From positions 24,691-88,690 of the IMG/VR virus record IMGVR_UViG_3300008117_006248: a stretch of DNA of 64,000 nt, one strand, 5' to 3'. The position numbers and the translations under genes are program-made. Below, in pieces: positions 13,304-62,700 of this stretch. The stretch's first letter is position 1. Each line of letters opens with the position of its first letter. The notes under the pieces were generated by a model that was not told where the DNA came from, did not search any database, and saw only the letters and a list, made by a program, of their open reading frames with translations. The DNA is from a virus.

Positions 13304-15162
13304 AAAAGAAAAAGATACTTTATCACAGCGATTTTGCTTTGTCTAAGACTGGCTTTGGTAGAAATACCAAGGCCATTCTTTCTTATTTATATAAGACTGG
13401 CAAGTATGAAATTGTATCTCTTAGTGGCGGCCTAACATTAAACCATCCAGAGCTAGAAAGAACTCCCTGGAAAAGCTACGGCTCTTATCCTACCTCCGGT
13501 GCAGCTTTAGAAGACGCAAATACAAACTCAGATAAAAGCAGGCTTTATTCTTATGGCGCGTTTGAGTTAGACAAAGTAATAGAATTAGAAAAGCCAGATA
13601 TATATATTGGCGTCCAAGATTTTTGGGGAGTAGATTATGCCATCGAAAAGCCTTGGTTCAATAGGCTTAACCATGTACTTTGGGTTACTTTAGATTCTTT
13701 ACCGCTTCTTCCTTCTGCCGTAGCTGCTGCTCCTAAAGTTAAAAATTATTGGGTGTGGTCTAGTTTTGCTGAAAAAGAAATGCATAAGCTCGGGCATACT
13801 CACGTTAAAACTGTTCACGGAGCAATCGACATTTCCGACTTTAAGCCTCTATCAAAAGAAGATAAACGAAGTATAAGAAAAAAGAACGATATTTCTAATG
13901 ATGACTTTATAATTGGTTTCGTTTTTAGAAATCAATTAAGAAAGTCTGTACCAAATCTTCTACAAGGTTTTAAAATTTTCAAAGAGAAAAATCCTCAATG
14001 TAAAGCCAAACTTCTTTTTCATACACATTGGAAAGAGGGCTGGGGTATTGAAAAGCTGTGCAAAGAAACCGGAGTAGATATAACTGAAATATTAACCACT
14101 TATATTTGCAAAAAGTGCAGAAACTACGATGTGCGCTCGTTCGACGGTCACGAAGTAAACTGCAAGAAGTGCCAAAGCGAAAAGTCTTGCGTTACTACTT
14201 CTACATCTTTAGGAACTACTGAGGCGCAACTCAATGAAGTTTATAATTTGATGGATGTTTACTGTCATCCATTCACAAGCGGAGGCCAAGAAATTCCCAT
14301 ACAAGAAGCAAAATTAACTGGATTAATTACTCTTGTAACTAATTATAGTTGCGGAGAAGAGATGTGTGTTCCTGAAGCGAACTCTATCCCGCTTGAATGG
14401 AGTCAATATAGAGAATTTGGTACAGAGTTTATTAAAGCTTCCACTTGCCCTAATTCTATTGCTGAAAAATTAGGTATAGTTTTTTCTATGCCTGAAGAAC
14501 AAAGAATCAAAATGGGAAGAGCCGCTAGAAAATGGGCTATTGATAATTTTTCTGTAGATAGCGTTGGTCAAAAAATCGAAAAGTTCTTGGATTCTTGCGA
14601 TGTCAAAGAATATACTACGGAAAAAGATCCGCCCAAGCTTAACGATCCAGACGCCTCTATACCAGACACAGAAGACGAAGTCAAGTGGCTAAAATCTTTA
14701 TACTCTTTAATCTTAAAGAGAGATATCGCTGACAATGATGACGGCTTGATTCACTGGATTGAAAAAATTAAAAGCGGCGTTTCAAGGCCAACAATAGATC
14801 AATACTTTAGAGAGGTCGCTCGTAAAGAAAATGACAAAAATAGAACTTTTAAATTAGAAGACTTATTTGGAGACACCCAACCAGAAGATAGAATCTTTGT
14901 TTCTATAAATTCAACAATAGAAAATATATTCTTATCCACTAAAATAATTTCTTCTATAAAAGAAAAATATCCTAACAAACACATCTTTGTTTCTTCTAAT
15001 GAGCAAAGCCAACCCATATTCTCCGGCAACACTAATATAAAAGAAGCATTTATACAAACAAAGCAATTCTCTGATCCAGAATTTTTAAGAAAGAATTTCT
15101 TTGAGAGTTATTGCTTAGATAATTTTTCAATCAACAATCATCATTCTGTTCTAATCAAATGA
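13297..15162 (+). CDS. GT-B glycosyltransferase (GT4-like) with a Zn-ribbon insertion and extra C-terminal domains
   Basis: KTGFGRN, FRNQLRKS and LNEVYNLMDVYCHPFTSGGQEIPIQEAK motifs; CKKC..CKKC insertion. Confidence 0.85.
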   Translation: MVKKKKILYHSDFALSKTGFGRNTKAILSYLYKTGKYEIVSLSGGLTLNHPELERTPWKSYGSYPTSGAALEDANTNSDKSRLYSYGAFELDKVIELEKPDIYIGVQDFWGVDYAIEKPWFNRLNHVLWVTLDSLPLLPSAVAAAPKVKNYWVWSSFAEKEMHKLGHTHVKTVHGAIDISDFKPLSKEDKRSIRKKNDISNDDFIIGFVFRNQLRKSVPNLLQGFKIFKEKNPQCKAKLLFHTHWKEGWGIEKLCKETGVDITEILTTYICKKCRNYDVRSFDGHEVNCKKCQSEKSCVTTSTSLGTTEAQLNEVYNLMDVYCHPFTSGGQEIPIQEAKLTGLITLVTNYSCGEEMCVPEANSIPLEWSQYREFGTEFIKASTCPNSIAEKLGIVFSMPEEQRIKMGRAARKWAIDNFSVDSVGQKIEKFLDSCDVKEYTTEKDPPKLNDPDASIPDTEDEVKWLKSLYSLILKRDIADNDDGLIHWIEKIKSGVSRPTIDQYFREVARKENDKNRTFKLEDLFGDTQPEDRIFVSINSTIENIFLSTKIISSIKEKYPNKHIFVSSNEQSQPIFSGNTNIKEAFIQTKQFSDPEFLRKNFFESYCLDNFSINNHHSVLIK

Positions 15163-47487: not shown

Positions 47488-50400
47488 TTATCTCTTAAAA
47501 TTCAAGGCTGCTGGTCCTAGTTTTTTGAGTTCTGGAATCTTGTCGAACAAGATGCTGATGATCCCTTGCATTGCTTCGTCTGGAGCATTTTGTATAGATG
47601 TCCTTCCATCTATATTTATAACATTAGAGTTAGAAACACTGCTAGAAGAAGCTCCATTAGGGAATGCTGATGTTATTCCATTTCTCATTGCTTCTGTTAT
47701 TGCATCGGAAAACTCCCCAATTGCAAAATTTGGAACGCTTCCTTGAGCAGCAGATGGGAAAGACATTCTTGGAGCAGACATTCTCATTCTCGAATAAACA
47801 TCCCCAGAAGACATCATGCTGTTGCTCATAGCGGCGAAGTTAGGTACTTTCCCGCTAGTCCTTTCTTGCATTACTTGTTCAGCGGTAATCCTTCTCCTTA
47901 CGGCTTCTTCTAGAACATCCTTGGGGAAATCTTGAGCTCCGGTAGCCGCTGTGTAATCTCTAGAAAGTTGACTATTTATTTCTGGAACAGACATTCCTTG
48001 GATAGCTGCGCCTCTTCTTGCGGCGGCCTCTTCTCTATCTGCGATTACTCTTTCGGCGCTTCTTCCAGTTTTAGTGGCTTCTTCTAATACATCTTGAGAA
48101 AAGCCTTTGGGTATTTCTGGAATTAGATAATTTTTATTACCTTTATTCGCGTTATCTCTTTCCCTCGAATAGTTCCTGTAAGACTCGAATAAACTCTTAT
48201 CTCCTTCGAAGTCTTTCTCTGTGAATTTGCCAAAAGTTTTTTCTTGATCAAGTAAATACAAAGCCTTATCTCTAGAAGTTTTTAGCCCAGAGAGATCTTC
48301 GTTAGGAGTTAGCCCTCTAACTACAGTTTTTCTTAAAGAAGCGCTAAATTTTTCTTGTTCTTCATTTCTGGCCGCTTCTTCTGATTTTATAGCTTGTTCA
48401 TTTTCTTTTGCTACTTTTGCTTTTTGAGCTATGGTTGCAGCTATTCTTTGTTGCTCTTCTTGTTCTTTCTGCTTTTGAGCTCTAGCAGCGCTTATTTCTG
48501 TAAGCTCTTTGCTCAGTCTATCTGTTATTCCTTCTGTGGATAATCCTTGCCCTTTGTTTAGATCTTCCAAGGCAGTTCTTCTAGTTCTAATATAATCTGA
48601 CATAGAAGCTTTTCCTTCTATTACTTCTTTCTTACTTACTCCTTTTTCATATCCAAATCTAGCATTGTTTGCTATAGCTGAAGCTTCTGCTCCAGCTATA
48701 AATTCTCCTAGCGTATTTGCTTTACCTTCAAATCCAAGTTTATTGCCTAATACATTTCCTAATCTATATCCAATCTTTGCAGTAGCTACAGCAGCTCCTA
48801 CTGGGCCTCCTGCGGCAGTTAATGCTGTGCCTAAAACATCTAAGTATCCTCCTCCTTGTTCTGCTTTACCAAATAAAACATCAGACCAATTTGATGCTAA
48901 TTCGAAATTTTTCGCATTGACTATATCTCTTGCCAATCCTATACCTGCAGCAGCCCCGAATGCTTTGCCAGCTAAACCTTGGGCTCCTTTGCCTAAAATT
49001 CCAGCTAAACCTGACGCCCCGTAAAGCCCAGCTTGAGTCGCAGAAACAGCAGCGTTTCCGTATTGGCCAGCCTTGAACTCATCTCTAGCTTGCAAACCGC
49101 TAGTCAAAGCTCCTGATATGCCAGCTCCACCAGCAGCTAACTTGCCTAATGCCCCCGTAAAAGTGAGAGGCAAATTTTTTGAACTCACAAAACGGCCTGT
49201 TGTTGGATCTCTGAGAGGCTTGCCCTTGCTTTGGCTGCCACTTTTAATTAAATTACTGACCAAGCCAGTCCCTAACGCAAGCGAAGCAGTTCCGTATATT
49301 GCCGCATCAACTTTATTTCCTTGGTTAAAAGCATCAACGGCTTGCGCCCCTAGCGCGGCGGCAGATAAACCAGAAAGAGCAGTTCCTCCTTTGTTTATCG
49401 CATTTTTGCCAAAAGACATTAAGCCAGCACTAGCTTGCCCTAATAGACCTTTAGCTCCAGTAAACAAATTAGATCCAGTAGAACCCAATTTGCCAGCAAT
49501 ATTTTGTGCTTGATCATATAAAGCTGGCCCAACTTTACTAGCTAATCCTTTGGCTTTAGAGAACTGATCTTTTACAGAATTTAGTATAGAAGAAGACAGA
49601 CTTGGCTTCTGAGAAAATCCGGAAGGAAGGCCGCCAGACAGCCCGGCAGAAGACCCTATAGATGGCCTTATTGATTGAGGCAAAGCAGGCGCTCCAGTAG
49701 GATTAATACCTACCGCCGGAGATCCACTAGCCAAACCTCCTGGTAACGGTTTTTGTCCAAAAATATTTTTAACTAGCTTTTCGGATAATCCTCTACCCAT
49801 AAAACCTGTAGAACCAGTTTTATCGCTTGGATTTATCTCGAAAACAATAGTGCCAACTCGCCCTCTTCCTCCAGAATAAAATTCTCTCGACTTAACTCCA
49901 GCATCTAAGGCTGATTGCAAAGTCGTGCCTCCGACATCTACTCCAAAAAATGCATTTTTAATTCCTTTACTCTTTACTAAAGCTCTGATAGAGTCGAAAG
50001 CAGAGGCTTCCGCTGATCTCCTAAAAGATCTAGTCATCTTAACGGCTTCGCTTTTCGAAAGTCCAGCGTCCATATAAGCTTTTATGGATGGCCCGGCAGA
50101 AGGATCAAACCCTGTCGCCTTTAAAACCGTTCCACCTTTTATTATTTTAATATTTCCTTTATCGTCTACAGCTACGTGGACTCTTAATTCATTATAATAA
50201 GTAGGAACTTTTTCTTGAGTAAAAAATCCACTACCTGTACCTCTATTAAATTTACCGATTATAGATCTAGCATCTGCGGTTGTAAGCTTCCCACCTAATC
50301 CATAAACCCCTTTGCTTTGGACATTTGATTCGCCGAAAGCTGTTTTAATAAGAACATCTTTGCCACCAGAAATTTTATCAATTTGAGCTAATAAGTTCTT

Positions 50401-53400
50401 AGGAGTCAATTTGCCTTGTTTATCCAGCTTAGTGAGAATGCTATCTATAGATTTTGATCTGGCTATTCCTGGTAAACTTAATTCATCTAATTTAGTTACT
50501 CTAGGATCCTTTAAAGCAAGAATAGATTTTTTCCCAACGCCTTCGCTTAATTCTGTCGATATTGTTCTGGCGCCTCTAGGCAAACTTTTAGAATCAATTA
50601 AAGAAGTATCAACAGTTCCATTCGGATTTACTTTTCTAAAACCATTGTCTATATTATCCCATACATATAATTTTCCAAGCTTGGCGTTTTCTCTAGCTCT
50701 TAAAGCCGCTTTTTCTCCGAAAGCAGCATAATTGGGAACGAATCCCGAAGACCTCATACCCAAACTTCTAAGTCCGTTTTTTTCATCTATGCTATTCGTA
50801 ACCGCAAAACCGAAAGGATTGGATTGCGTTACTAAATCTGGACTTCTTTCCAAATTAATATTAGCCATAGCGAAATTTGGGACACCCATTATCCCTCTGC
50901 TGGCTAGTGCTGTTTTTTCTCTATTTACGGCGTCTGCTATCGAGCTAGAATATTTTGTTAAACCATTTGCATTGCTTGGTATTCCAGTCGGCATTAATCC
51001 GCCCATACCTGCGTAAGCAGAAGCGGCTGCCTTGACTTTAGATTCGTTACTTGCTTCTGATAATTTTACTTCATCAGCTGTAATATTCGCTAAAGTTGTC
51101 TTAATGCCTGTGGTCCCGAATGTAGACTTCAAGCCATTTTCAAAAGCAGTTATTAAAGCCTTGCTTTGAGATTGAGATATTTCTATTAATTTTTCTTTGA
51201 TGGGAGAAATTGTATTTTCTAAAACTCTTAGAGCCGCATCTTCTGTTTTGGCTTGTCTTACTGATTCTACATTAAATTTTTCGAGATCTCCCATCGCCTT
51301 CTGAATATCTTTTGGAATTTCAGGGCTACCGAATAAAGCATTAGTTTTAAGCCCGGCAGATTCAAGAAGATAACTTTGATCAAAAGCTTTTCCTCTCAAC
51401 AAATTAGCAGTTTGTCCGAGACCCATCATTTGAGCCATGCCAGCTCTTCTGAAGAGATCTTTTTGCATGTCAAAAGCATTTAGCCTTGTTAATTCTGCTT
51501 TTACAGCTTGGATATCAGAAGGTTCTTTGCCTCCTTTGGTCATTAATAAACCTGGATATTTCTGTAAAGTATCAGTCAAAAAGTCTGTCGCCCCAGCAAT
51601 TTGGCCTCTTCTAGAACCAATCATTGATCCTAATTGGTAAGTTAATGGTCCCCTTATGGAAGAAGCCATTGCCTCTGCTCTCATTTGAGGATTCAATGAG
51701 GCTCTTATATCTCCACCGAAAGCTATTTTTTCTTGCAGAGCCAAAAACTTTAATTGTATTTTTTTGGACTCTTCGGCTATTATTGTTGCTTTATTTATAT
51801 CTCTTGATTGCTGAGAATTAAAATCAATAAGCTTTTGTATGCCTTTGGATTGTGCTTCGCTAAGTCCTGGTAATTTTTGTAAGCTTTCTAATTCTCTACC
51901 CGCGCCCGCGCCCGGGGCCTCAATATTTCTTAGTCTGGCTTCTACCGCAGGAGACAAGTTAGCCAGAAATTCTTTATCATTTAATTGAGTCAATAATGAA
52001 TTCTGGAAAGAAACCGCAGCATCAGCTTTCTTTATCGCCAGCGTAGCCTCTGAAGAGGCAGATATGCCAGCTCGTCTGCTGAATGTTCCTGCTAGTTCTG
52101 CCAATTCTGGAAGTTGTTGTTCTAAAGCTTTCTTTATTTCGGTTCTTATATCTCTAGCATCTTCGACAGCTTGTCTTCTTGAAGCTAATGGCTTGCTTAT
52201 TCTTGCTATTTCTTTTGCTTGCGCGGAAGTAATTTTTTCAATTCCTTGGGCCACTTTTAGTGCTTCTATAAAAGCTTTTTTCAATTGATCAGTATTGAGT
52301 TGATCAGAAAATTCTTTTACGTCTAATCCGGCCTTCTTGAGTATTTCGCCGAAATTAGCTGTAGTAGCTTTAGAAAGATCTGTTTTAAATATATCAGTGT
52401 TTGCCCTATTTATTATTTCATTAAAGAAAGAGCTTAACTCTGCTGGGGCTTGTTCTCCAGTTATCTTTCCTTTTCTTCCGAATTCTAAAGCAGAAGTTCT
52501 TATTGCTTCTTGTGTTTGTGCTTTCTTTAAATTTTCTTCTAGTACAGTAATTTGATCACTAATTGATGTTTGCCCAGCCAATCTAGAAATTAATTCCGGA
52601 TTCTTTATTGATATTTTCTTTATTAAGTCTTCTCTAGTTTTGACAAGCTTTACTATTTCTCTAGGATCTGCTTTTGGGTCTTTGTATGCAGCATCTAATT
52701 TAGACAAAGAAGCACTAAGCTCTGTTGTATTTTCGGCCAAGTCTGTGAAAGCTTTCTTAGAGCGGTCTAGTGCATTTTCAAATTTTTTGCTTTGGATTCT
52801 TTGATCTAAATCTCCTCCTGACAATTCGCCCAACTTAACGCCACCATAAATTTGCGCTGCGCCTGTTAATCCAGCAGCTATTCTGCTGCCCGTTGAAGCT
52901 TTTTTAGACAATATAGCTGTTCCTATATTTTTTACGCCTGCGGAAGCTGGCAAAGCTTGACTTATAAATTTTGACACAGCAGAAGGAATCACTTCTCTTT
53001 CTGCCAATTCATCTATTATGCTGGCGTAAGCTTGTTTTTCAAAAAGTTCTAACGCTCCAGAAATTGGATTGGCAAGTTTTCCGCCTGCTTTGCCAAAAAA
53101 ACGAGATATTAAAGCTGTTGGAATTTTAGCGAAATTAGGAACTACGTCTTTTAACCCATTAGGCTCATCTTTTTTGTTTGTTACCGCTATTGGATTTCCG
53201 CCTCTATCAAAATGAGCCATAATTTGAGAGGCTGGTAAGCCACTCATTGTTTTTTCTCTTCCTATAGCATCTGATAAGCCAGCAAAATTAGGAATGCGCC
53301 CGCTTGCGAATCCAATAAGTTTAGATATTTCATCTCCCTTTTCAAATCTCATTCCGAACGGAAAAAAAGAAGCGAGTGGTTGATATCTAGTATTTGATGG

Positions 53401-56400
53401 GTCAGATTTGTTAGCTGAAACTTTTACTCCAGTTAGTCTTTCAAATTCTGAAGGAAGATCTATGCCTTTAGAGAGAGAAGTTTGAGCGTCTGCATAAGTA
53501 GATCTTGGATATAATGGATGATAAGAGTTTGGAGCGGCAACTATGCCCCCGACATCAGATACCCTTGAAACAACAGAGGAAACAGAATACTTATTTTCTC
53601 CAGAGTATTTTTCTACCATTGGATCATGTAGCCCGGCAGCTCCTTCTCTAAATTTTTTGCCTATAGCTATGGCGCTTAGTCCTTTTTTTGTTAAATATTT
53701 TACTGCCTGATCATAAAGAGCGCCAGTGCCGAGCAAAGACGCACTTGATGGATTTATAGACAAAACAGATTGAACGAAAGAGGGAGGGAAATCTTTTTTA
53801 TTTTTAGATACTAATTGTTGCAAGAAAAATATATTTCTTTTATTCATCCCGCCTTTAGCAGTTCCATATTTATTTATAGCGCTAGATGGAACGTGAGGCG
53901 CGTAATACGCTCTTCCGCCTTGTTTTTTGGCATAATCATGCAAAACTTGCATTGCGTCTACGCCAGCAGATCTTGCTGTAGAAGCATAAGATCTATTAGG
54001 AAATTTTAATCCATATCCAATACCACCACTAATTTGACTAGAAGGATCTAAATTAGCTTTAAGAGAATCATAAGCGCTAGTTAATATTAAATTGGGACCT
54101 TCTCCACCTATTATTAATTTTTCTGGATTAACTTTAGCAAAATTAGGAACATATCCGCCTGCCCTTCCTTCAATGCCAGATAAAGCAGATCTTACTGTCT
54201 CTGGGCTATATTTTTCTTTATGTACGCTATTAGATTTAAAAATAGCAGCCTGCAGACCTGCCGCTCCAGTTTCTATTTGATGTAATTTAGCAAATTCATT
54301 AGCTAGTGATATCAATTTTGCCGCTTCTGTTTTGCTAGGTTTTTTGCCTCCAAGGATTGCTTGGATTACATTTGTATCTATTGGAAAGGCTGTTTTATCT
54401 TGCAATATTGCTCTGGCGTAATGTCTGGTTTTGGCTGTATCATCACTTCCTAAATCAACCCCTCTTAAAGCCTTCGACAAACCATATCTTCTGGCATCAT
54501 CTCTAGTTCTTATATTTCCTTCGGCAGATATTTCGCCTTTTTTGCCGAATAAACCTAAAGACGCTACATTTTTGTGCCTGCTAACTATTTTTGATGGAGC
54601 TAAATCAAAATAATCTTCTACATTAGTAGATTTTGTTTTCATGTACCTGTTGAATATTGGAGCCGCGAATTGAGCAGCTACATAATCAGGCACAGAAGGA
54701 GAAATAGCAGAAGTTATATTAGCGTAAATTTTAGCTTCTTGTGGGGAAAGTTTTTTGCCACTAAATTCTTCGCCATGTATATTATAAAATCCTGCGTAAT
54801 CCTTTCCTTGTTCATAATGCTTTTGAAATCTAGCAAAGATTTCTTTCTTTCCAATTCTTTGGATGATGTCTTTGCGTTTTGCAAAATTAGGGATTCTACC
54901 TCCAGCAAAATTTGTTACAATGTCACTAATGCCAAAAGATCCATCTATAATGCTATTTCTTAAAAGTTTTGCATCTCCTTTAAATTTTTGAGACGCTAAG
55001 CCAGCAACTATAGAAAAAATATTTTTACCACTTACTTTACTATTATCATAAGTTAAACCATCATCAATATTTACTGACAATGCGGTATTTTTAGCTGAAC
55101 CTTTTTGTCTATGTATTAATTGAGGAAAGGCGACCTTTAAAACTTGTTCTATGCCATACTTTCCTGATCTAGCTAATGAAGCATCTGTTATATCGTAAAC
55201 ATCATTCGCTTGGGAAGACAAAGACGCGCTTCTTACCGGCAAGCCCATTCTTTTAGCTGTCTTGCCAAGTCTTTCGAACATTTGCCAACCCTGACCTTTG
55301 GCTTCGCTTTTAGAAAAAGTTAAGTCTATAGCTTTTTTATCATTAGATAATTTATATCTAAGATAACTGTAAGTCTCTGGATCTACAAATCTTCTATCTC
55401 CAGAAACAAAAGATTTTGTAGAAGAAAAAGCAAAATTAGGAACATAACCTCCAGCATAAAGAAAATCTTCTTTTTTACCATACTGTGCGTCTTTAACAAA
55501 AACAGTATTTCCAATTTGAATAGCCTTAGAACCGCCTACGACTGGTTTTTTTGTTTTTCTGTCGTAGTAATATGAATGTCTATCAGGATTAAAGCCTACT
55601 TGAGTCCAGCTACTTAGATCTTTCGGTAAAGATTGATTTTCGGATAGAGTCCCTGAAATTTTTAACAATGGACTTTTATTTGCTCCAGCACCTATGGCTA
55701 AAGAAGCTTTTTCCAAAGCAGTAGATTTATTCATCACTGGATTATCAAAAGCTACAAATGAATCGTAGGACTTAAACCCTTCTGGGCCTAGAGTCTTGAC
55801 TACTCCTACGCCTTTTCTAGTCATAGAAGGAACATCTTGACGCACACTTATGCTGCTTCCAGCAGGAAGTTCTGATAATTTTCCTACTCTTTTAGCTTGC
55901 TCTTTATCTAAAGCATTTCTAATCAAAGATTTCGAAGGTAAATTTTTTATAGAAGAAGGCGCGACTACTTCTCTTATTGGTATATCTCTTTCTATTAAAG
56001 CTTCCAACAAGTCTCTATCTATATTTTCTCCAGATTGAAGTTTTTGCAGCATCCCTCTGACCTCTGGCGAATACATGCGGCCAGCTTTAATTGCAGCTTT
56101 GCTCTCTGGGTATTTTGCAAGAAATTCTTTTGGCATTTTATTGGTCTTGGACCAAGAAAAATTAGGAACGTATCCAGAACTCATTCTGGGGATATCTTGC
56201 ATTTTTCTATATTTAGGAATTATCGCGGTGTCTCCTGTGCCAGCAAAGTTAGGAATAATATCCTCTTCGCTATTGACCATTACTGGCTGAGTCTTGCCTT
56301 TAATTGTCGCTTGTATTAATTTAGCTTTTGGATTTTTAGCTCCATAAGCCTTGGCCATAGCGACCTCTTCTTGAGCTCCGCCAAATGTCGGGACATATCC

Positions 56401-58023
56401 AGAAGCTCTTACTCTGCTTGGGCCGCCTCTAGCAACAACTGTAGGAATTATTCTAGCCCTTAAAGCTTCTTGTGTTTTTAGTTGTTTATTTTGCTCTCTT
56501 AAAGTTTGCAATACTGCTTGCTCCGCTGCGGCCAATGAAATAGTTCCCTTTTGCACAAGAGCAACCAATTTAGGACTTTGTGATAAAATATCATTAACAG
56601 CTTTTTGTGAAGCTAATGATTTTTCTCCAGCGAATACTTCATCAAAATTTTTGCTTACATCTTTTATAGAACTAACTCCGAATTTAACCATCTTAGCTAA
56701 CAAAGTGCCTCCGATTCCCACTAGAAGAGGGATGCTACCAGTCGCTATAGTTTTTCCAAGGGCAGAGGCAGCCCCTTTAAAAAAAGACTCTCCTACAGAT
56801 TTGCCGCTTTCCTCAGATTTTCCTAAAAGATCACTCGTAGGATTTACTGCTTTTAATAATATTTCAGAAAATGAACTACCGATCCTAACTAGCGGCTCTA
56901 ACAATGGCTTACCTAATGCGGCAGCAGCTTCCTGAGCTTGGTTTTTTGTTTGTTGTAATAAAGCTGATAAGCTCTTATTTAATTCTTCGTTCTTTTTCTT
57001 AGCTTCATCTGTTGCTGCGCTAGAAATTTTTAAAGCACTAGCATAAACGCTATTTGAGCTAGAAAGATCTTTAATTAAAGCGTTAACTTGGTTGATTTGG
57101 TAAATACCACCAATTAATTCTGCTGTTCTTGATTTTTCTATCTGACTTAAATTTTTTGTAGCATCAGCGTAATTCTTAAGCACGGACAAACCATCCAATA
57201 AGAATCCATTTTGATCTTTAATAGCAACACCCAACTGCTCCAACTGGCTAAGAACCTCTGGTCTTTGTAGGCGAGTAAATATTGTCTTTAAAGCGTTACC
57301 AATTACAGCGCCACCACGACCAGTTATTTGTTGAGCGGCTGTAACTGTAGCTATTAGCTTGTCTATGCTGATTCCACTTTCTTCCGCAGAGCTACCTACA
57401 CGGCTAAGAGCCTCGTTCAATTGAGCAGAGCTAACAGCAAATCTTGTATCAACAGCAATTAACTTATTGACAATGTCTGTTGAAGTCAAGGCTTCTTTAT
57501 TGAAGCTATTTATTGCAGTAGTGACACCGTTTACAGCATCTGCATAACTAATTCCAGATATTCTTGCTAGTGTTAAAGCATCTTCTGTTCTTCTTAATAC
57601 TTCATTAGCAGACAAACCTTGTCTTGCAAATTCTTTAGCAGCTTCAGAAGCAGCCTCGAAAGGAACAGCAGCATTTCTTGCTACTTTAAACAATGACTGA
57701 GAAAATCCTTCTAGCTGATCCCTAGATTGTCCTAAAAATGTATTTAATTCTACAAGTTGCTTATCTATTTCTACTGTGGCTCTTGCGCCAGCTCTAATAG
57801 CTTCTGAAACTTTATAAATCGCACCAGCGGTTAATCCGAAGGCTGTAACGCGGGCTGTAGCAGCTTCCAGAGATTTTCTGAACTCTGTAACATCGCCGCT
57901 TATCCTTCCTAATGGTTGACCAAATTTAACAGAAGACGCTCTTTTACTAATACTATCAAAAGCTACGTCTACCTGCTTTGTGTTTGGTATAAGATTTACA
58001 TTTACGTTTACATTAGCTGGCAT
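47488..58023 (-). CDS. Tail tape measure protein (3511 aa) with multiple inserted cargo domains
   Basis: N-terminal TP901-type TMP domain (EFARQGLSANEVLRRTEDALTLAR, GGAVIGNALKTIFTRLQR), Ala/Gly-rich helical and coiled-coil regions, and canonical position after the tube/chaperone genes. Confidence 0.88.
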   Translation of the reverse strand: MPANVNVNVNLIPNTKQVDVAFDSISKRASSVKFGQPLGRISGDVTEFRKSLEAATARVTAFGLTAGAIYKVSEAIRAGARATVEIDKQLVELNTFLGQSRDQLEGFSQSLFKVARNAAVPFEAASEAAKEFARQGLSANEVLRRTEDALTLARISGISYADAVNGVTTAINSFNKEALTSTDIVNKLIAVDTRFAVSSAQLNEALSRVGSSAEESGISIDKLIATVTAAQQITGRGGAVIGNALKTIFTRLQRPEVLSQLEQLGVAIKDQNGFLLDGLSVLKNYADATKNLSQIEKSRTAELIGGIYQINQVNALIKDLSSSNSVYASALKISSAATDEAKKKNEELNKSLSALLQQTKNQAQEAAAALGKPLLEPLVRIGSSFSEILLKAVNPTSDLLGKSEESGKSVGESFFKGAASALGKTIATGSIPLLVGIGGTLLAKMVKFGVSSIKDVSKNFDEVFAGEKSLASQKAVNDILSQSPKLVALVQKGTISLAAAEQAVLQTLREQNKQLKTQEALRARIIPTVVARGGPSRVRASGYVPTFGGAQEEVAMAKAYGAKNPKAKLIQATIKGKTQPVMVNSEEDIIPNFAGTGDTAIIPKYRKMQDIPRMSSGYVPNFSWSKTNKMPKEFLAKYPESKAAIKAGRMYSPEVRGMLQKLQSGENIDRDLLEALIERDIPIREVVAPSSIKNLPSKSLIRNALDKEQAKRVGKLSELPAGSSISVRQDVPSMTRKGVGVVKTLGPEGFKSYDSFVAFDNPVMNKSTALEKASLAIGAGANKSPLLKISGTLSENQSLPKDLSSWTQVGFNPDRHSYYYDRKTKKPVVGGSKAIQIGNTVFVKDAQYGKKEDFLYAGGYVPNFAFSSTKSFVSGDRRFVDPETYSYLRYKLSNDKKAIDLTFSKSEAKGQGWQMFERLGKTAKRMGLPVRSASLSSQANDVYDITDASLARSGKYGIEQVLKVAFPQLIHRQKGSAKNTALSVNIDDGLTYDNSKVSGKNIFSIVAGLASQKFKGDAKLLRNSIIDGSFGISDIVTNFAGGRIPNFAKRKDIIQRIGKKEIFARFQKHYEQGKDYAGFYNIHGEEFSGKKLSPQEAKIYANITSAISPSVPDYVAAQFAAPIFNRYMKTKSTNVEDYFDLAPSKIVSRHKNVASLGLFGKKGEISAEGNIRTRDDARRYGLSKALRGVDLGSDDTAKTRHYARAILQDKTAFPIDTNVIQAILGGKKPSKTEAAKLISLANEFAKLHQIETGAAGLQAAIFKSNSVHKEKYSPETVRSALSGIEGRAGGYVPNFAKVNPEKLIIGGEGPNLILTSAYDSLKANLDPSSQISGGIGYGLKFPNRSYASTARSAGVDAMQVLHDYAKKQGGRAYYAPHVPSSAINKYGTAKGGMNKRNIFFLQQLVSKNKKDFPPSFVQSVLSINPSSASLLGTGALYDQAVKYLTKKGLSAIAIGKKFREGAAGLHDPMVEKYSGENKYSVSSVVSRVSDVGGIVAAPNSYHPLYPRSTYADAQTSLSKGIDLPSEFERLTGVKVSANKSDPSNTRYQPLASFFPFGMRFEKGDEISKLIGFASGRIPNFAGLSDAIGREKTMSGLPASQIMAHFDRGGNPIAVTNKKDEPNGLKDVVPNFAKIPTALISRFFGKAGGKLANPISGALELFEKQAYASIIDELAEREVIPSAVSKFISQALPASAGVKNIGTAILSKKASTGSRIAAGLTGAAQIYGGVKLGELSGGDLDQRIQSKKFENALDRSKKAFTDLAENTTELSASLSKLDAAYKDPKADPREIVKLVKTREDLIKKISIKNPELISRLAGQTSISDQITVLEENLKKAQTQEAIRTSALEFGRKGKITGEQAPAELSSFFNEIINRANTDIFKTDLSKATTANFGEILKKAGLDVKEFSDQLNTDQLKKAFIEALKVAQGIEKITSAQAKEIARISKPLASRRQAVEDARDIRTEIKKALEQQLPELAELAGTFSRRAGISASSEATLAIKKADAAVSFQNSLLTQLNDKEFLANLSPAVEARLRNIEAPGAGAGRELESLQKLPGLSEAQSKGIQKLIDFNSQQSRDINKATIIAEESKKIQLKFLALQEKIAFGGDIRASLNPQMRAEAMASSIRGPLTYQLGSMIGSRRGQIAGATDFLTDTLQKYPGLLMTKGGKEPSDIQAVKAELTRLNAFDMQKDLFRRAGMAQMMGLGQTANLLRGKAFDQSYLLESAGLKTNALFGSPEIPKDIQKAMGDLEKFNVESVRQAKTEDAALRVLENTISPIKEKLIEISQSQSKALITAFENGLKSTFGTTGIKTTLANITADEVKLSEASNESKVKAAASAYAGMGGLMPTGIPSNANGLTKYSSSIADAVNREKTALASRGIMGVPNFAMANINLERSPDLVTQSNPFGFAVTNSIDEKNGLRSLGMRSSGFVPNYAAFGEKAALRARENAKLGKLYVWDNIDNGFRKVNPNGTVDTSLIDSKSLPRGARTISTELSEGVGKKSILALKDPRVTKLDELSLPGIARSKSIDSILTKLDKQGKLTPKNLLAQIDKISGGKDVLIKTAFGESNVQSKGVYGLGGKLTTADARSIIGKFNRGTGSGFFTQEKVPTYYNELRVHVAVDDKGNIKIIKGGTVLKATGFDPSAGPSIKAYMDAGLSKSEAVKMTRSFRRSAEASAFDSIRALVKSKGIKNAFFGVDVGGTTLQSALDAGVKSREFYSGGRGRVGTIVFEINPSDKTGSTGFMGRGLSEKLVKNIFGQKPLPGGLASGSPAVGINPTGAPALPQSIRPSIGSSAGLSGGLPSGFSQKPSLSSSILNSVKDQFSKAKGLASKVGPALYDQAQNIAGKLGSTGSNLFTGAKGLLGQASAGLMSFGKNAINKGGTALSGLSAAALGAQAVDAFNQGNKVDAAIYGTASLALGTGLVSNLIKSGSQSKGKPLRDPTTGRFVSSKNLPLTFTGALGKLAAGGAGISGALTSGLQARDEFKAGQYGNAAVSATQAGLYGASGLAGILGKGAQGLAGKAFGAAAGIGLARDIVNAKNFELASNWSDVLFGKAEQGGGYLDVLGTALTAAGGPVGAAVATAKIGYRLGNVLGNKLGFEGKANTLGEFIAGAEASAIANNARFGYEKGVSKKEVIEGKASMSDYIRTRRTALEDLNKGQGLSTEGITDRLSKELTEISAARAQKQKEQEEQQRIAATIAQKAKVAKENEQAIKSEEAARNEEQEKFSASLRKTVVRGLTPNEDLSGLKTSRDKALYLLDQEKTFGKFTEKDFEGDKSLFESYRNYSRERDNANKGNKNYLIPEIPKGFSQDVLEEATKTGRSAERVIADREEAAARRGAAIQGMSVPEINSQLSRDYTAATGAQDFPKDVLEEAVRRRITAEQVMQERTSGKVPNFAAMSNSMMSSGDVYSRMRMSAPRMSFPSAAQGSVPNFAIGEFSDAITEAMRNGITSAFPNGASSSSVSNSNVINIDGRTSIQNAPDEAMQGIISILFDKIPELKKLGPAALNFKR
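47722..56409 (-). repeat. Dispersed peptide repeat (A/S)(G/S)G(Y/R/F/K/S)(V/I)PN(F/Y)A within the TMP, about 12 copies including degenerate ones
   Basis: Copies at about 56382-56409, 56240-56260, 56155-56184, 55429-55458, 54880-54909, 54136-54165, 53281-53310, 53128-53148, 50869-50886, 50725-50751, 47833-47859 and 47722-47748. Confidence 0.9.
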
Positions 58024-58043: not shown

Positions 58044-58049
58044 TTACAC
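58044..58049 (-). promoter_or_regulatory. GTGTAA candidate late-promoter element upstream of the TMP gene
   Basis: The minus strand reads AGTGTAATCTACTGAAGGAAACAGGTTATG. Confidence 0.4.
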
Positions 58050-58546
58050 TATAATCCGTGCATTTCGATAAAATCTTGTTTTGTGAGCTTACCACCTTTT
58101 TTCGCGGCCAACTCGTTGAGTGTCACAGCTTTACCGCCCACCATTTTTTCTAGCTCTTCTCTTGTTGCTCCAGTATAGCCTACACCACTCGACTGGCTTC
58201 CCGCAGTTGGCATAGAAGCAGAGTTTTCTACCGACTCATACCATTCTATCATTTTGTCTGGATCAGAAACTACGTCAGATGGAGGATTTGTTTGGGCTTG
58301 ATTTTCCATCAAAGACTTAAAGTACTTTGCCTGAGAGAATAGATTTACCTGTAATATAGTTAAATCTTTCACATGTTTGCCAAAAAAATTTAAAGGACTA
58401 TTTTCGCATAAATTAAAAAGACTCATGAAAAATGAACAAGCGCAAATTCTCTTTATTTTATCGTGAGCGAACTTTTGGTAAAAACGCGTTAAAATAAGAA
58501 CAAGATTATCTAACTCTCTATCCGATAATAAATCAAATTCTTCCTC
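58049..58546 (-). CDS. Downstream half of a frameshifted or split putative tail assembly chaperone
   Basis: The frame is open for 40 codons upstream of the ATG at 58426 (EEEFDLLSDRELDNLV...) and overlaps the end of 58533-58922 in the +1 frame. Confidence 0.55.
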   Translation of the reverse strand, partial: EEEFDLLSDRELDNLVLILTRFYQKFAHDKIKRICACSFFMSLFNLCENSPLNFFGKHVKDLTILQVNLFSQAKYFKSLMENQAQTNPPSDVVSDPDKMIEWYESVENSASMPTAGSQSSGVGYTGATREELEKMVGGKAVTLNELAAKKGGKLTKQDFIEMHGL

Positions 58547-58922
58547 TTAATTCAGAGAGTTGCTTTGTATAGTTTTTTATTTTGCTTTTTGCGTCGTTAA
58601 TTTGTTTTTTTATGATAAGATTTTTCAGTAACATTTCTGTATCTGAAATTTGACGCTCTAAGTTTTGTATTTCTTTTTCTTTTTCATTAGACCATAGTTG
58701 ATTTCTTATTAAAAAAGTAAGTTTCTCTTCTTTAGACTCTAGTCCTTTATCTGTTGCTTCTTGGCTAAATTTTCTTCTATATTTATCTAGATCTCCGTTC
58801 TCTAGCTCAGTGAAGTGTTTAATAAAAATAGGCTTTCCTAAGTATTCATCCTCAGAAAAGCCTACAGCTATCTCTTTGTACAAGCCTTTGTAAAAGCTTA
58901 TTTTTTCATAAAGATCGCTCAC
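58533..58922 (-). CDS. Upstream half of a putative tail assembly chaperone
   Basis: 129-aa helical ORF between the tube and TMP genes; ends AGA GGA AGA ATT TGA. Confidence 0.6.
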   Translation of the reverse strand: MSDLYEKISFYKGLYKEIAVGFSEDEYLGKPIFIKHFTELENGDLDKYRRKFSQEATDKGLESKEEKLTFLIRNQLWSNEKEKEIQNLERQISDTEMLLKNLIIKKQINDAKSKIKNYTKQLSELRGRI

Positions 58923-58928
58923 GCTATG

Positions 58929-59642
58929 TTAACCGACCAACTCTTCTTTTGGCACGCCAGAGTTGAGCTGTCCAATAAGGAAACCACCCTTTTCGACTAC
59001 TCCGCTCAAGAACTCGTCCCCAGAATCTTCTATCTGATTTAATCTTTCGAGTTTTTGCTCGAATGAACCTTCTCCAAATAAACAAGTCTGAGACCCTTCC
59101 TCGCCCTGATAAAGAAGATTTAATACAAACCATACATTCAAGAAATCAGAAGCTCTCTTTTCTGCTGTATTATCAAACAAAGAATTTTGTACGTTTTCAT
59201 AGTCAAAAATCTTTTGGCGCAGCACTTGATATTCTGAATTCAGAGCGGCATTCTTTAATTCTTTTTCTGCGTCACTTAAACTCGAATCTTGGCGAACCTT
59301 TTCTAGTTCAATTTCAATTGCTATTGCCTTAGAATAATTTTCCGTGTGCGCCTTCTTTTCTTCTTCAGACGGCAACACACCATCTTGCTGGAACTTACGC
59401 AAAAGGTAATTTCTAGTAACAAGACCCATCTTTATGCCTTCGGAAACCTTAACTGAATAAAATACGCTCGCCTCGTCTTGGATCTTTCTATTTGGCCTCA
59501 GAATATAAAACTTGTGCGGGACTTTCTTTTCCACCTCTTTGGTGATCTGTATTTCTTCGCCAGCAGCGTTTACTTCTGCTGTCGTTTCTTTTACCTTTTG
59601 AGTTTTTTCGACTTCAAAACTATGTAGCCATTTTTCTTTCAT
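58929..59642 (-). CDS. Hypothetical protein, possible tail assembly chaperone
   Basis: 237-aa charged helical ORF between the tail tube and TMP genes. Confidence 0.55.
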   Translation of the reverse strand: MKEKWLHSFEVEKTQKVKETTAEVNAAGEEIQITKEVEKKVPHKFYILRPNRKIQDEASVFYSVKVSEGIKMGLVTRNYLLRKFQQDGVLPSEEEKKAHTENYSKAIAIEIELEKVRQDSSLSDAEKELKNAALNSEYQVLRQKIFDYENVQNSLFDNTAEKRASDFLNVWFVLNLLYQGEEGSQTCLFGEGSFEQKLERLNQIEDSGDEFLSGVVEKGGFLIGQLNSGVPKEELVG

Positions 59643-59645
59643 ATT

Positions 59646-59927
59646 TTATTTTAAGGAAATGTTTATAGACTTAAAGCTGGTATCAATGTTTCTAATTGCA
59701 TCGTTCCCAGCGTCCAAGATCTTTTTTCTTATGTAATTATATTTATCATTATCGAAATAATCAACATTTTTAGCAAAATCCTCGGAAGAGTTTTCGGCTA
59801 TTTTTTTTAATAGTATTTCATGATCTTGCTTCAAATCATCGATAATCTCAAAATACTTCTTATAAAGAGAAATAATATTTCTGCTATATTGGAATTTCAA
59901 ATACTCTTTTAGTTTTTCGTCGTCCAT
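59646..59927 (-). CDS. Hypothetical protein
   Basis: 93-aa ORF with an AAAGGA SD-like sequence and TATAAT just upstream. Confidence 0.65.
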   Translation of the reverse strand: MDDEKLKEYLKFQYSRNIISLYKKYFEIIDDLKQDHEILLKKIAENSSEDFAKNVDYFDNDKYNYIRKKILDAGNDAIRNIDTSFKSINISLK

Positions 59928-59969
59928 AGTCCTTTGCTGTATTATATAGAAATAATAGAAAATATAAAA

Positions 59970-60001
59970 TAAAAAACCCCCGCCGGTTAGGGCGAGGGCT
60001 A
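59970..60001 (-). terminator. Rho-independent terminator after the tail tube gene
   Basis: The minus strand reads AGCCCTCGCC-CTAACC-GGCGGGGGTT followed by a T run, i.e. a GC stem with G-U pairs plus a U-tract, about 18 nt after the stop at 60019. Confidence 0.85.
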
Positions 60002-60018
60002 GTTTTAGAATCTTTTTA

Positions 60019-61143
60019 TTAACCCTTCAAGAAGTGTAGCCCAGAATTCTTACCGATTTGAGCGGAGAATTCCATGGTAACAGTTTGGTTAGGTCCAATT
60101 GAAGAAGTGAAGTTTTGAGAATCCAATTTAGCGCCTTTTAGCATTACATAGGATGTGTGGGCTGTGGCTCCTTGATAACCAACTAGCTTTAGCTCGCAGT
60201 AGTACTTATTAGCATCACCATTTGTAGTCATTAGTGTATACAGCTTATTAGAAGCAGTAGTTCCGACAATAGCATTTACGCTAAGAGTACAATTAATTGG
60301 GAATGTAATTTCTCTAGCGAAAGCGAATGATTTGCCGAGTTTTCTGATTGGCTCACGACCAATTGTCATGGCTACTGTAGCACTTTGAATCTTTAGATCA
60401 GACTCGCTAAGACCAAACATAGGAGCATTATCAGTATCACTAGTTCCTAGTTTCAAAGTAATATCACCTGGTCTAACAGCAGCTATTTGAGTGTCAGCAT
60501 CAAATAATCCAGCGCCATCAGGAAGAGTAACTGTGCTGCTTGTAGAAATGTCTGCGCCATCAACTACAGCAGGATTTCCAATAGCGTAGGAGCCTCCGCC
60601 TCCAGTGAATACGATATTTTGCCCTTCTAGAGCGCAAGAAACTGTTGGAATTGCTCCTACTGAAGCTTCCAAAGACCAAGAAGTAACGAAAGCATTACCA
60701 ATACCAATAATTCCTTCGACTGTGCTTGTCGACATTTTATTTGTGTCATTGGCATCAATACCAGCATCACTAACTAAAACATAAACATTCTTTTGATCAT
60801 AACCAGTTCCGCTAGAAATAATATAATCTAGCATGTGATCGGCTTCTGTGGAAGTTCCAGTGACGGCATCTATTCTGAAGCCTAAATGATCTTCATTAAA
60901 ACCTGTTGGTTCAAAGTAGTAGGATAAGTCTACTGCTACGGTTGGTTCTTGCAAAATCAACCTATCAATAGCAGCCAATTCACCATATTGGTTAATATCT
61001 TGGCGGGTGATTGAGAAATTGTAGTTGCAACTTTGTACTCTGCGTAAATTGTGGTCAGCAGAAGTGATCGTTGTTGTGCCAGTTGGGGCAGCAAATAAAG
61101 CTTGGCTTTGGTATATGACACGATTTCTTGTAGTGTTTGACAT
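60019..61143 (-). CDS. Putative major tail (tube) protein
   Basis: RNRVIYQSQALF..RVQSCNYNFSITRQDINQYG pattern with internally duplicated tube-like halves. It has its own SD (AAGGA), an upstream GTGTAA and a downstream terminator, consistent with high expression. Confidence 0.65.
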   Translation of the reverse strand: MSNTTRNRVIYQSQALFAAPTGTTTITSADHNLRRVQSCNYNFSITRQDINQYGELAAIDRLILQEPTVAVDLSYYFEPTGFNEDHLGFRIDAVTGTSTEADHMLDYIISSGTGYDQKNVYVLVSDAGIDANDTNKMSTSTVEGIIGIGNAFVTSWSLEASVGAIPTVSCALEGQNIVFTGGGGSYAIGNPAVVDGADISTSSTVTLPDGAGLFDADTQIAAVRPGDITLKLGTSDTDNAPMFGLSESDLKIQSATVAMTIGREPIRKLGKSFAFAREITFPINCTLSVNAIVGTTASNKLYTLMTTNGDANKYYCELKLVGYQGATAHTSYVMLKGAKLDSQNFTSSIGPNQTVTMEFSAQIGKNSGLHFLKG

Positions 61144-61171
61144 ATGGTTTCCTTATAGATTCTATTGTCAT

Positions 61172-61177
61172 TTACAC
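61172..61177 (-). promoter_or_regulatory. GTGTAA candidate late-promoter element
   Basis: The minus strand reads TGTGTAAATGACAATAGAATCTATAAGGAAACCATATG. Confidence 0.4.
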
Positions 61178-61204
61178 AAAATAAATGAACTATAGAAAAT
61201 TATT

Positions 61205-62050
61205 TTAGTAAGCATGAGGGGCTCTCACTACCTCTAAATCAAAGTCAACAAAAGCTGCTACAATGTCTGGATTTAAGTTCTTAAATTCTGCTGAACTTGA
61301 TGTTTTTACTTGAGATACTGATACGCTGGATAGGTAAACATTGTCTCCTGTAGCTATACCAGTATAATTATATGGTACTCCAGTGTAAGAGCTCATTGCA
61401 TTAAGATTTAAATCTTGATTGCTTACTGTTCTAAAAAAGTCATGAGCAGAGTCTCTTAATACTCCGCAAGCGGCATCAAGAGAATACATTGAATTAGACA
61501 TAACTAATGCCCTAAAATAACAAGTTGTCATGTCTGTGCCGCCGAATCCAAAAGGCTCATTTTGCGAATTAACAAGCCTTAAGAATATAGCTGGATATGT
61601 TATTTCATTTACAGCTAAACCAGTTAATGTTTGCGGCTTTCTATTTTTAGGCTCAAATTTAGTAGAGAAAAGTAGATAATCTTCTGCTTTATCAGTGAGG
61701 TAGACATTGAAGTCTTTTATAGAGTAGTTGCCGCTTATTGTATTTGAATTTTTGTTAGATGAAAAAATTACTTGGCCATCATAGTGATTAATCGCTACTA
61801 AACCGCTTTGCCCCGGAGTTATAAAATTTCCATCTAAATAAATCCCAGTTAATTGAGTAGCGCCAGGAATTGATGCGTCACTAACTATTTGCTTATATGG
61901 CGCAGCGTATGTATAATATCCATTGTAAACACCAGAAACAGGATAAAACTTAGAGCTTGTATTTTTATAGCCCTCTCCTCTTTTTAATATGGTATGGTCT
62001 ACATAGAGTAAAAAGCTGCTTGTTAATACATTTTGGAAATTAGCTTTCAT
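61205..62050 (-). CDS. Putative tail terminator/completion protein
   Basis: Immediately upstream of the tube gene; TYPAIFL..PFGFGG motif. Confidence 0.45.
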   Translation of the reverse strand: MKANFQNVLTSSFLLYVDHTILKRGEGYKNTSSKFYPVSGVYNGYYTYAAPYKQIVSDASIPGATQLTGIYLDGNFITPGQSGLVAINHYDGQVIFSSNKNSNTISGNYSIKDFNVYLTDKAEDYLLFSTKFEPKNRKPQTLTGLAVNEITYPAIFLRLVNSQNEPFGFGGTDMTTCYFRALVMSNSMYSLDAACGVLRDSAHDFFRTVSNQDLNLNAMSSYTGVPYNYTGIATGDNVYLSSVSVSQVKTSSSAEFKNLNPDIVAAFVDFDLEVVRAPHAY

Positions 62051-62700
62051 TATGTTATATTATTGATAAAATTGTTAGTGAAATTATTAACAATTTTTGT
62101 TATGTATTTTGTTGTTTTGAATCCCATTGGGCGATTTGATGGGCCTTCTGTGATTGGGCCTTTTAATTGCAAACCTCTTTCAGAACGACCTCTTGGGTAA
62201 TCAGCATAATAAGAAACTCCAGAGATGCCTCTTTCTATGCCTTTTACCCAGTTTCTGCCGCCATTCCATCCTTGGAATTGAGCCGAATCATCAAAGTCTT
62301 CTAGTTGAGGAATTTCAAATGAAACTTTTATCACTCTTGTTCTTTTCCCTCTTGCGAATTGTCCTTTTCTATTTCTTGGATAATTTATAATTAAATCTGT
62401 GCCTTTGAATTTGATTTTTGATTTTAAGGCTGCTCTCACTGGAGAAATTGGATTAAATCCAGACTCAAAGCCAATGAAACCAAACAAATCTCCATATCCG
62501 CCCAAAGTATTGCTAATGTTTCCTTCTTCTGGATTTAATAATTCTTGAGTTACAGGGTGCTCGTCAAAATCTTCTAGAGCTTGATTTTTTGCTTCATTAA
62601 ATTGTTTTTTTATTGCTCTTTCTATTTCATTTTGCACAGAAGGGTCAGAAAGGGCTTCTGAAACTATATCTCCTTGTATTGTTATATTTCCTATTTTCAT
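62050..62700 (-). CDS. Putative neck/tail completion protein
   Basis: Position between the connector and terminator genes; FDEHPVTQEL, GDLFGFIGF and WVKGIERGISG segments. Confidence 0.4.
   Translation of the reverse strand: MKIGNITIQGDIVSEALSDPSVQNEIERAIKKQFNEAKNQALEDFDEHPVTQELLNPEEGNISNTLGGYGDLFGFIGFESGFNPISPVRAALKSKIKFKGTDLIINYPRNRKGQFARGKRTRVIKVSFEIPQLEDFDDSAQFQGWNGGRNWVKGIERGISGVSYYADYPRGRSERGLQLKGPITEGPSNRPMGFKTTKYITKIVNNFTNNFINNIT

Follow-up and report, generated by a model that had tools for sequence, protein, structure and literature searches.

The 64,000 nucleotide window of DNA considered here, positions 24,691 to 88,690 of the IMG/VR virus record IMGVR_UViG_3300008117_006248, carries the gene of a giant tape measure protein (TMP) within which a module of the ATP-grasp ligase type appears to be embedded. 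The source record is 88,690 bp in length with an estimated completeness of 59%, the window has a G+C content of 35.7%, and the virus is an uncultured large phage. The TMP gene (P0001) is read from the minus strand at 47488-58023 of the window as one open reading frame (ORF) of 3511 residues. Its TP901-type N-terminal domain (residues 71-380; 56884-57813, minus strand) is recognized by PF10145 in Pfam (residues 119-301, E 3.9e-26), by TIGR01760 tape_meas_TP901 in NCBIfam (residues 71-380, E 5.6e-36, 124 bits against a cut-off of 28.8 bits) and by 11 PHROG families that match the N-terminal part of the protein only, 10 of which are annotated as tape measure protein. The 3511-residue frame is a genuine TP901-type TMP, and a first-pass annotation, which had placed an ATP-grasp domain inside a TMP, named the carrier correctly.

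The ATP-grasp module occupies residues 2437-2770 (334 residues; 49714-50715, minus strand), as judged by AlphaFold2 modelling, the structural aligners Foldseek and VIA-align, and the ratio of nonsynonymous to synonymous substitution (dN/dS). It is adjoined upstream by a conserved 77-residue unit, here termed the anchor (residues 2360-2436; 50716-50946, minus strand), which is detected by BLAST and ends in a VPNYA linker (residues 2429-2433; 50725-50739). The first-pass annotation had located the domain at 49790-50420 and had listed five motifs there in a given order. The plus-strand translation of this interval is full of stops; the motifs belong to the minus strand inside the ORF 47488-58023, where all five are present in that order and span 49828-50355, namely VLIKTAFGESNVQSKGVY (residues 2557-2574; 50302-50355), FFTQEKV (2600-2606; 50206-50226), ELRVHV (2612-2617; 50173-50190), FFGVDV (2692-2697; 49933-49950) and VFEINP (2727-2732; 49828-49845). 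The interval therefore holds every motif but is too short for the folded unit, which extends over approximately residues 2449-2760 (49744-50679).

The fold of the module was predicted with AlphaFold2 for residues 2437-2770 from a 23-row alignment comprising the window domain and 22 whole homologues. The model has a mean predicted local distance difference test score (pLDDT) of 83.2 and a predicted template modelling score of 0.81, and its low-confidence parts are confined to model residues 58-61, 299-304 and the last 11. The structure prediction proposed earlier as a check of the region yields an ATP-grasp match with both aligners. Foldseek against the PDB returns 104 matches at E<=1e-3, and every row listed is an ATP-grasp enzyme with a probability of 0.98-1.00, among them PurK (the best, E 6.6e-6), tubulin tyrosine ligase, ArgX/LysX, Ddl/VanG, RimK, biotin-carboxylase-type subunits, an ATP-grasp ligase of ribosomally synthesized and post-translationally modified peptides, and Pby1. 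VIA-align, which is independent of Foldseek and was run against 48,161 chains, gives 886 matches with Z of at least 2, 81 with Z of at least 5 and 35 with Z of at least 8, on a scale where models without a true match typically reach a best Z of 7-8; the matches cover model residues ~13-324. The highest score is that of TTLL11 (Z 11.9 over 243 residues, root-mean-square deviation 4.3), followed by DcsG (11.7), BesA and PGM1 (both 11.4), PurD (11.2), BacD (11.0) and LysX/ArgX (10.6). Because these top seven ligases fall within about one Z unit of each other, no ATP-grasp subfamily can be named as the closest. Cdc123 (4zgo_A) reaches Z 8.7 over 187 residues, as compared to 10.6-11.9 for the classical ligases. 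Among predicted viral structures in BFVD the best matches are stand-alone phage ATP-grasp proteins, e.g. S0A3B0 of Cellulophaga phage phi14:2 (E 5e-5) and A0A2K9VHG3 of Pseudomonas phage Bjorn (E 1.9e-3), none of them a TMP; unlike the module these are free proteins of 230-360 residues, and their TM-scores are low (0.26-0.35). Protein language-model look-alikes of the domain are viral RimK/Ddl-type protein atlas clusters (0.92), which were taken as a lead only. On the strength of the model, the domain almost certainly has the ATP-grasp fold.

Conservation along this fold was counted over 36 distinct domain sequences, the window copy and 35 others with identities to it down to 28%. Twelve positions are invariant in all 36 (K2560, T2561, G2564, G2572, V2573, G2575, E2612, R2614, H2616, D2620, G2623 and K2635), three more (D2696, E2729 and N2731) are invariant in the 35 sequences that cover them, the 36th row being a truncated fragment, and Q2603 is Q in 33 of 36 and E in the remaining 3. 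In the model the Lys, the Gly loop, E-x-R, the Asp and E-x-N sit on the strands expected for ATP-grasp. The Lys strand (K2560-T2561; model strand 121-128) leads into a Gly-rich flexible loop of lower pLDDT that contains G2564, G2572, V2573 and G2575 (together 50302-50355, minus strand); the hinge FFTQEKV with Q2603 and the strand ELRVHVAVD with E2612, R2614, H2616 and D2620 (50173-50226, minus strand) form model strands 161-168 and 174-183, with Q2603 at the end of the former and E-x-R-x-H on the latter; and the putative Mg-binding strands FFGVDV (D2696) and VFEINP (E2729, N2731) (49828-49950, minus strand) correspond to model strands 255-265 and 287-296. The classical ATP-grasp ligases (TTL/TTLL, DcsG, BesA, PGM1, BacD, LysX/ArgX, RimK, Ddl and PurD/PurK), which share the fold of the domain at Z 9.3-11.9, also share its order of elements: Lys strand, Gly loop, Q/E hinge, (D/E)-x-R strand, Asp strand and E-x-N strand. 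In ATP-grasp enzymes the residues at these positions bind the phosphates and the adenine of ATP as well as Mg, and the domain apparently has a complete nucleotide and Mg site. That such a pattern might have come about by chance in low-complexity tape measure sequence, with no domain behind it, would agree with the blank outcome of sequence-only searches (see below), yet this explanation has practically no probability left and is refuted by the confident model, by the agreement of two independent aligners on the ATP-grasp fold and by the 36 homologues; motifs whose residues are invariant in all these homologues, in a segment predicted to fold as ATP-grasp, exceed chance.

The motifs had originally been read as those of the RimK type. 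An alignment of the family to E. coli RimK by hhalign pairs K2560 with RimK K141, FFTQEKV with ILVQEYI and ELRVHVAVD with DIRCLVVGD, and at a permissive setting a low-confidence extension places FEINPS on RimK MEVNAS. This shows only that a profile method picks the same motif-to-RimK register as the motif reading. A corresponding alignment to E. coli DdlB, which covers 21-22 columns and lays ELRVHV on the Ddl "GRIDV" strand, is in the wrong register and was discarded. The RimK reading thus survives, weakly, as a register of motifs and not as a family membership: no Pfam model of RimK or another ATP-grasp family matches at E<=10, and the Z of 9.3 for RimK lies below those of TTLL11, DcsG, BesA, PGM1, PurD and LysX (10.6-11.9). 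RimK itself poly-glutamylates ribosomal protein S6 at its C-terminus, and the first-pass annotation had proposed, as one conceivable activity of the domain, that of an injected glutamylase of host ribosomal or defence proteins.

Searches by sequence place the domain far from known families. PF08443, searched at E<=1 against the whole virus record, has no match, as compared to 13 of 14 control genomes positive, and tblastn of the domain finds no match in 50,697 phage records. A scan with two peptide patterns only, over 185,579 prokaryote species with one genome each, yields 242 pattern matches and no confirmed relative; the same scan in IMG/VR yields five relatives, L004-L008. Taken with the predicted fold, these results identify the domain as a very divergent ATP-grasp family and not a member of the RimK family.

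A number of observations count against taking the segment for a working ligase. No ATP-grasp Pfam family is found for the whole TMP, for two cuts of the domain or for 11 family members even at E<=10; no NCBIfam model and no PHROG family matches the domain; and the domain has no related match among PDB sequences, by phmmer or with the family profile, both of which give weak unrelated matches only. Among the weak matches, OprF, DUF6781, Radical_SAM and similar families in Pfam were taken as noise, and GST (phmmer, E 0.37-0.59), alpha-parvin (profile, E 0.17) and a glycosyltransferase (profile, E 3.1) in the PDB were taken as chance. The hhalign match to RimK is itself weak, E 0.073 with 11 sequences and E 0.046 with 36, and non-significant alone. 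In the model a small beta unit stands in place of the usual Rossmann-like N-terminal domain, and 20 residues are inserted between the FFGVDV and VFEINP strands, an insert that RimK does not have; because of these two features the acceptor site is predicted to be atypical. Confidence is also lower at the Gly loop and at model residues 299-304. The lack of a detectable sequence family, the small beta N-unit and the insert likewise set the domain apart from the classical ligases.

By the method of Nei and Gojobori dN/dS of the module is 0.070 for the window against L004, 0.081 for L007 against L008, and 0.13-0.37 for the remaining pairs, whose dS is 1.1-2.0; these ratios are rough, as dS is 0.96-1.29 even in the best pairs, and above 1 in the window pair, so that synonymous sites are at or near saturation. 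The values point to purifying selection on the module, not decay. A decayed and purely structural ATP-grasp remnant that no longer binds nucleotide would account for the failure of every ATP-grasp sequence model to detect the domain, and in five related TMPs (P0065, P0071, P0078, P0082 and P0084) nothing but the initial 60-110 residues of the module is left, which shows that decay occurs in the giant-TMP family. Such a remnant is nevertheless very unlikely in the module itself, where the canonical ligand positions are invariant over the 36 sequences, at identities down to 28%, and dN/dS is 0.07-0.08. The domain is likely to be catalytically competent.

Competence need not mean ligation. The fold could serve as an Mg-ATP sensor of arrival in the cytoplasm that triggers rearrangement of the TMP, or as a kinase-type ATP-grasp enzyme, like the inositol-phosphate kinases, acting on a small molecule or protein. 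For either use it may be said that the invariant residues are mainly nucleotide and Mg ligands, that the acceptor-binding N-domain is atypical, and that VIA-align also matches kinase-type and non-catalytic proteins, with ITPK1 at Z 8.5, synapsin at 8.0 and PPIP5K2 at 7.2. However, the best structural matches are all ligases, with Z 10.6-11.9 as against 7.2-8.5 for the kinases and synapsin, and four residues outside the minimal set of nucleotide ligands, R2614, H2616, D2620 and K2635, are invariant as well, a pattern that fits a catalytic pocket. A sensor or kinase is accordingly improbable, and a ligase-type enzyme is the preferred assignment.

The distribution of this putative enzyme among TMPs shows features of a cassette. 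Against 1.84 billion representative proteins phmmer gives 16 matches at E<=0.001 and 9 at E<=1e-10; these 9 strong clusters contain the whole domain, except for P0008, a 167-residue fragment with part of it, and the other eight are proteins of 1191-3692 residues. Weaker matches in the same library, P0011-P0017, align only with domain residues ~11-54, in 4-9 stretches each, and were rejected as homologues of the domain; all 4 of these that were scanned (P0011, P0013, P0015 and P0016) are NHL-repeat proteins. The start of the module, residues 2437-2486 (50566-50715, minus strand), with the sequence GKLYVWDNIDNGFRKVNPNGTVD, looks like a single NHL-repeat hairpin, a resemblance that probably reflects convergence of a beta hairpin. 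A word-indexed search among proteins of 1931-6145 residues gives 21 matches, of which 19 have PF10145 on record, the exceptions being P0020 and P0005. In P0020 BLAST likewise finds no TMP N-terminus, and the IMG/VR contig with an 85%-identical match, taken to be that of P0020, begins ~2.9 kb before this match; the N-terminal part of P0020 is thus probably truncated.

Approached from the carrier, the TMP N-terminus (residues 1-540) finds 557 giant proteins at E<=1e-10, the best 120 of which were examined with a hidden Markov model of the domain. The module is present in 29 of these best 120, and in 10 of the 27 among them with at least 70% N-terminal identity. Among 124 related TMPs of at least 1900 residues it is present in 33, and the anchor, by BLAST, in 65 (30 of the 33 with the module and 35 of the 91 without it). 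The sister TMP P0035 is 98.6% identical to the window TMP over residues 1-623 and 93% identical over residues 1288-2433, after which there is no similarity until residue 2890; the break coincides with the last residue of the VPNYA linker (residue 2433). Proteins without the module continue after the anchor with Pro-rich or Gly/Ala-rich sequence that does not resemble the module (42 such slots, best BLAST E 0.53). Module and carrier also differ in their degree of relatedness: in P0021 the module is 83% identical to that of the window and the N-terminus 49% and anchor 56%, whereas in P0009, P0033 and P0034 identities of 92% for the anchor and 89% for module C stand against only 38% for the ATP-grasp module. 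In P0006 and P0029 the module is found near residue 612 of TMPs whose N-termini are no more than 24% identical and which lack the PNF linker motif. No other module accompanies it consistently, since modules A, B, C and D occur in 2, 7, 8 and 3, respectively, of the 33 module-bearing TMPs. By these sequence comparisons the module is an optional, horizontally exchanged cassette. Overall it is a real and very divergent ATP-grasp enzyme module, probably active, that forms an exchangeable insert in a giant TMP.

Other features of these TMPs vary in a similar manner. The five TMPs with a partial module have its first residues after the anchor (at ~1270-1480), followed by low-complexity sequence; the partial copies may be what is left after deletion of a module, or else a small unit that can be separated from it. 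P0035 differs from the window TMP also over residues 624-1287, the region of modules A-C (residues 624-1291; 54150-56154, minus strand), and at the corresponding place carries DUF7178 (PF23802, residues 1116-1335, E 4.7e-9). The divergence over residues 624-1287 therefore marks a second cassette region swapped between near-identical TMPs. P0036 has 2896 residues and P0035 has 3441 as compared to 3511 in the window TMP, a difference of up to 615 residues between proteins whose N-termini are 94-99% identical; either near-identical phages differ greatly in the length of their tails, or the ruler may leave the cassettes out of account. A linker motif, [VI]PN[FY][ASG], mostly in the form G-(Y/R/F)-(V/I)-P-N-F-A, occurs in 11 copies in the window TMP and in 0-18 copies in its relatives; the VPNYA linker at which similarity to P0035 ends is one of these copies. 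The Asn-dependent self-cleavage sites of some insect virus capsids have an Asn with Phe or Ala next to it on the C-terminal side.

If the module is active, it would bind Mg-ATP between its central and C-terminal parts, and a carboxylate would be activated as an acyl-phosphate to which an amine is then ligated, as in a carboxylate-amine, amino-acid or peptide ligase; ligase chemistry is proposed because the nearest structural neighbours and established ATP-grasp enzymes work in this way. The structural ties to TTLL, LysX/ArgX and RimK would fit a C-terminal or side-chain carboxylate of a protein as the target, and those to DcsG, BesA, BacD and PurD would fit a small-molecule ligase equally. From the presence of a ligase-type, ATP-dependent module whose active site is conserved it follows that some part of the TMP functions in a compartment that contains ATP, either the cytoplasm of the next host or the producer cell. 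ATP is absent outside the cytoplasm, including the periplasm, a fact that weighs on any scheme of delivery; the enzyme would therefore have to act in the newly infected cell, following ejection and refolding, or in the producer before assembly.

Action in the producing cell supposes an active ligase that modifies the cytoplasmic TMP or another virion protein, e.g. by adding a residue to a carboxylate or by forming a cross-link, and is then trimmed away or carried as a passenger. ATP is present where the TMP is made, a folded 334-residue domain would suit the tail tube badly, and the LysX/ArgX, RimK and TTLL neighbours modify protein C-termini; the conserved active-site residues and the purifying selection are explained equally well in this manner. 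But even TMPs whose scaffolds are 93-99% identical may either have the module or lack it, so that a modification essential for assembly is unlikely, no TMP module co-occurs with it (A, B, C and D being present in 2, 7, 8 and 3 of the 33), and the fusion to a TMP instead of a free gene is left unexplained. Activity confined to the producer is accordingly rather unlikely.

Delivery by the tail is favoured, as it would account for the fusion of an optional enzyme to the TMP in place of a free gene; the arrangement suggests that a ready-made enzyme enters the host cell by way of the tail. The module would travel with the TMP, refold after ejection, and act on the cytoplasmic side of the newly infected cell, a place supplied with ATP, and these are the weakest steps of the scheme. 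TMPs are accessible from the cytoplasm while injection is under way: in phage lambda, TurboID fused to ManZ robustly labelled no phage protein other than the TMP (PMC13190303). Against delivery, the folded 334-residue domain should not fit within the lumen of the tail tube, and delivery would consequently need storage in an unfolded state or outside the tube; the module is moreover dispensable, as 91 of the 124 related TMPs do without it. That the domain acts in the new host as a delivered effector can therefore be put forward only tentatively. For the reading as a whole, that of a genuine ATP-grasp enzyme domain maintained by selection as an optional TMP cassette, with proposed ligase activity and, as its weakest part, proposed delivery, the balance of the evidence is slightly favourable. 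A more specific scheme, to be regarded as doubtful, would make the cassette an exchangeable, ready-made, ATP-dependent protein-modifying enzyme that is threaded through the tail with the TMP, refolds on the cytoplasmic side of the injection site, and joins an amino acid or a peptide to some host factor, for instance a membrane-associated defence or entry protein, before any phage gene expression.

The remainder of the TMP and its surroundings are poorly characterized by sequence. A long charged middle part of the protein lies on the N-terminal side of the ATP-grasp module, and on the other side, directly downstream of it, is a 350-residue Gly/Ala/Ser-rich and partly hydrophobic region (residues 2771-3120; 48664-49713, minus strand), in which G+A+S make up 39-46% per 100 residues and hydrophobic segments occur at 2908-2926 and 3061-3082. 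Gly/Ala/Ser-rich hydrophobic regions of TMPs are usually thought to enter the membrane, and residues 2771-3120 might have such a membrane-insertion role. Two small ORFs (129 and 125 residues) are found upstream of the TMP gene and a series of large ORFs downstream, which agrees with the usual order of tail chaperones, TMP and distal tail proteins. The very large ORFs past the TMP gene have 634, 603, 596, 1147, 461, 189, 1084, 3243, 936 and 1165 residues (17281-47472 and 58049-62700, minus strand). Ten neighbours in the tail region, 4 downstream and 6 upstream, were scanned with no Pfam or PHROG match, and the tail module is essentially unannotatable by sequence. The genes for DnaB, primase, Pol III alpha and RecA are on the strand opposite to the TMP. 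Beside these replication genes are sugar genes (631-3470 and 13297-15162, plus strand), namely a GHMP-family kinase, a GDP-mannose 4,6-dehydratase (E 6.9e-99) and a weak match to glycosyltransferase group 1 (E 8.2e-7), whose presence suggests that the phage has its own sugar-nucleotide metabolism.

Enzyme modules in TMPs are already known, and the ATP-dependent ligase-type cargo is what differs here. To our knowledge the enzyme modules present in TMPs are cofactor-free cell-wall hydrolases. The glucosaminidase is the classical muralytic cargo of TMPs, and more distant members of the giant-TMP family, with 40-42% N-terminal identity (P0098-P0101, P0106, P0107, P0111, P0113, P0117 and P0134), have the PF01832 glucosaminidase on record. 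The TMP of mycobacteriophage TM4 is reported to have an embedded cell-wall hydrolase motif (PMC1796659). TMPs with such hydrolase motifs resemble the window TMP in having an enzyme-type module that is dispensable for tail building in relatives; unlike the hydrolases, which are cofactor-free and act in the cell wall, the module here has the fold of an ATP-dependent synthetase and needs a compartment with ATP. It differs from the classical ATP-grasp ligases, which are free enzymes, in being embedded at residues 2437-2770 of a virion protein of 3511 residues.

A second comparison is with the polyvalent proteins of phages and conjugative elements, giant multi-module proteins with variable modules for which entry together with the DNA has been proposed (Iyer et al. 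2017, PMC5512222). The window TMP is, like them, a giant phage protein built of many modules that differ from one close relative to the next, and is unlike them in that the carrier is a TMP and not a MuF or portal-associated head protein. The text of that paper does not contain "tape measure" or "tail tape", and mentions "ATP-grasp" twice, both times for RNA ligases. No published account of an ATP-grasp domain in a TMP was found in open-access main texts.

The family described here is small and divergent, with 9 clusters in 1.84 billion representative proteins, and is found only in uncultured phages, so that it constitutes an unannotated enzyme family that escapes the present models of Pfam, NCBIfam and PHROGs. 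Delivery of the module, if it takes place, would place TMPs beside the head-packaged polyvalent proteins as carriers of pre-made effectors, and the sharp boundary of the cassette at a short linker would provide a natural system for effector swapping. If the proposal is true, it would provide the first known case of a phage tail that delivers an energy-dependent enzyme of the synthetase type, and the giant TMPs would constitute a modular effector-injection device.

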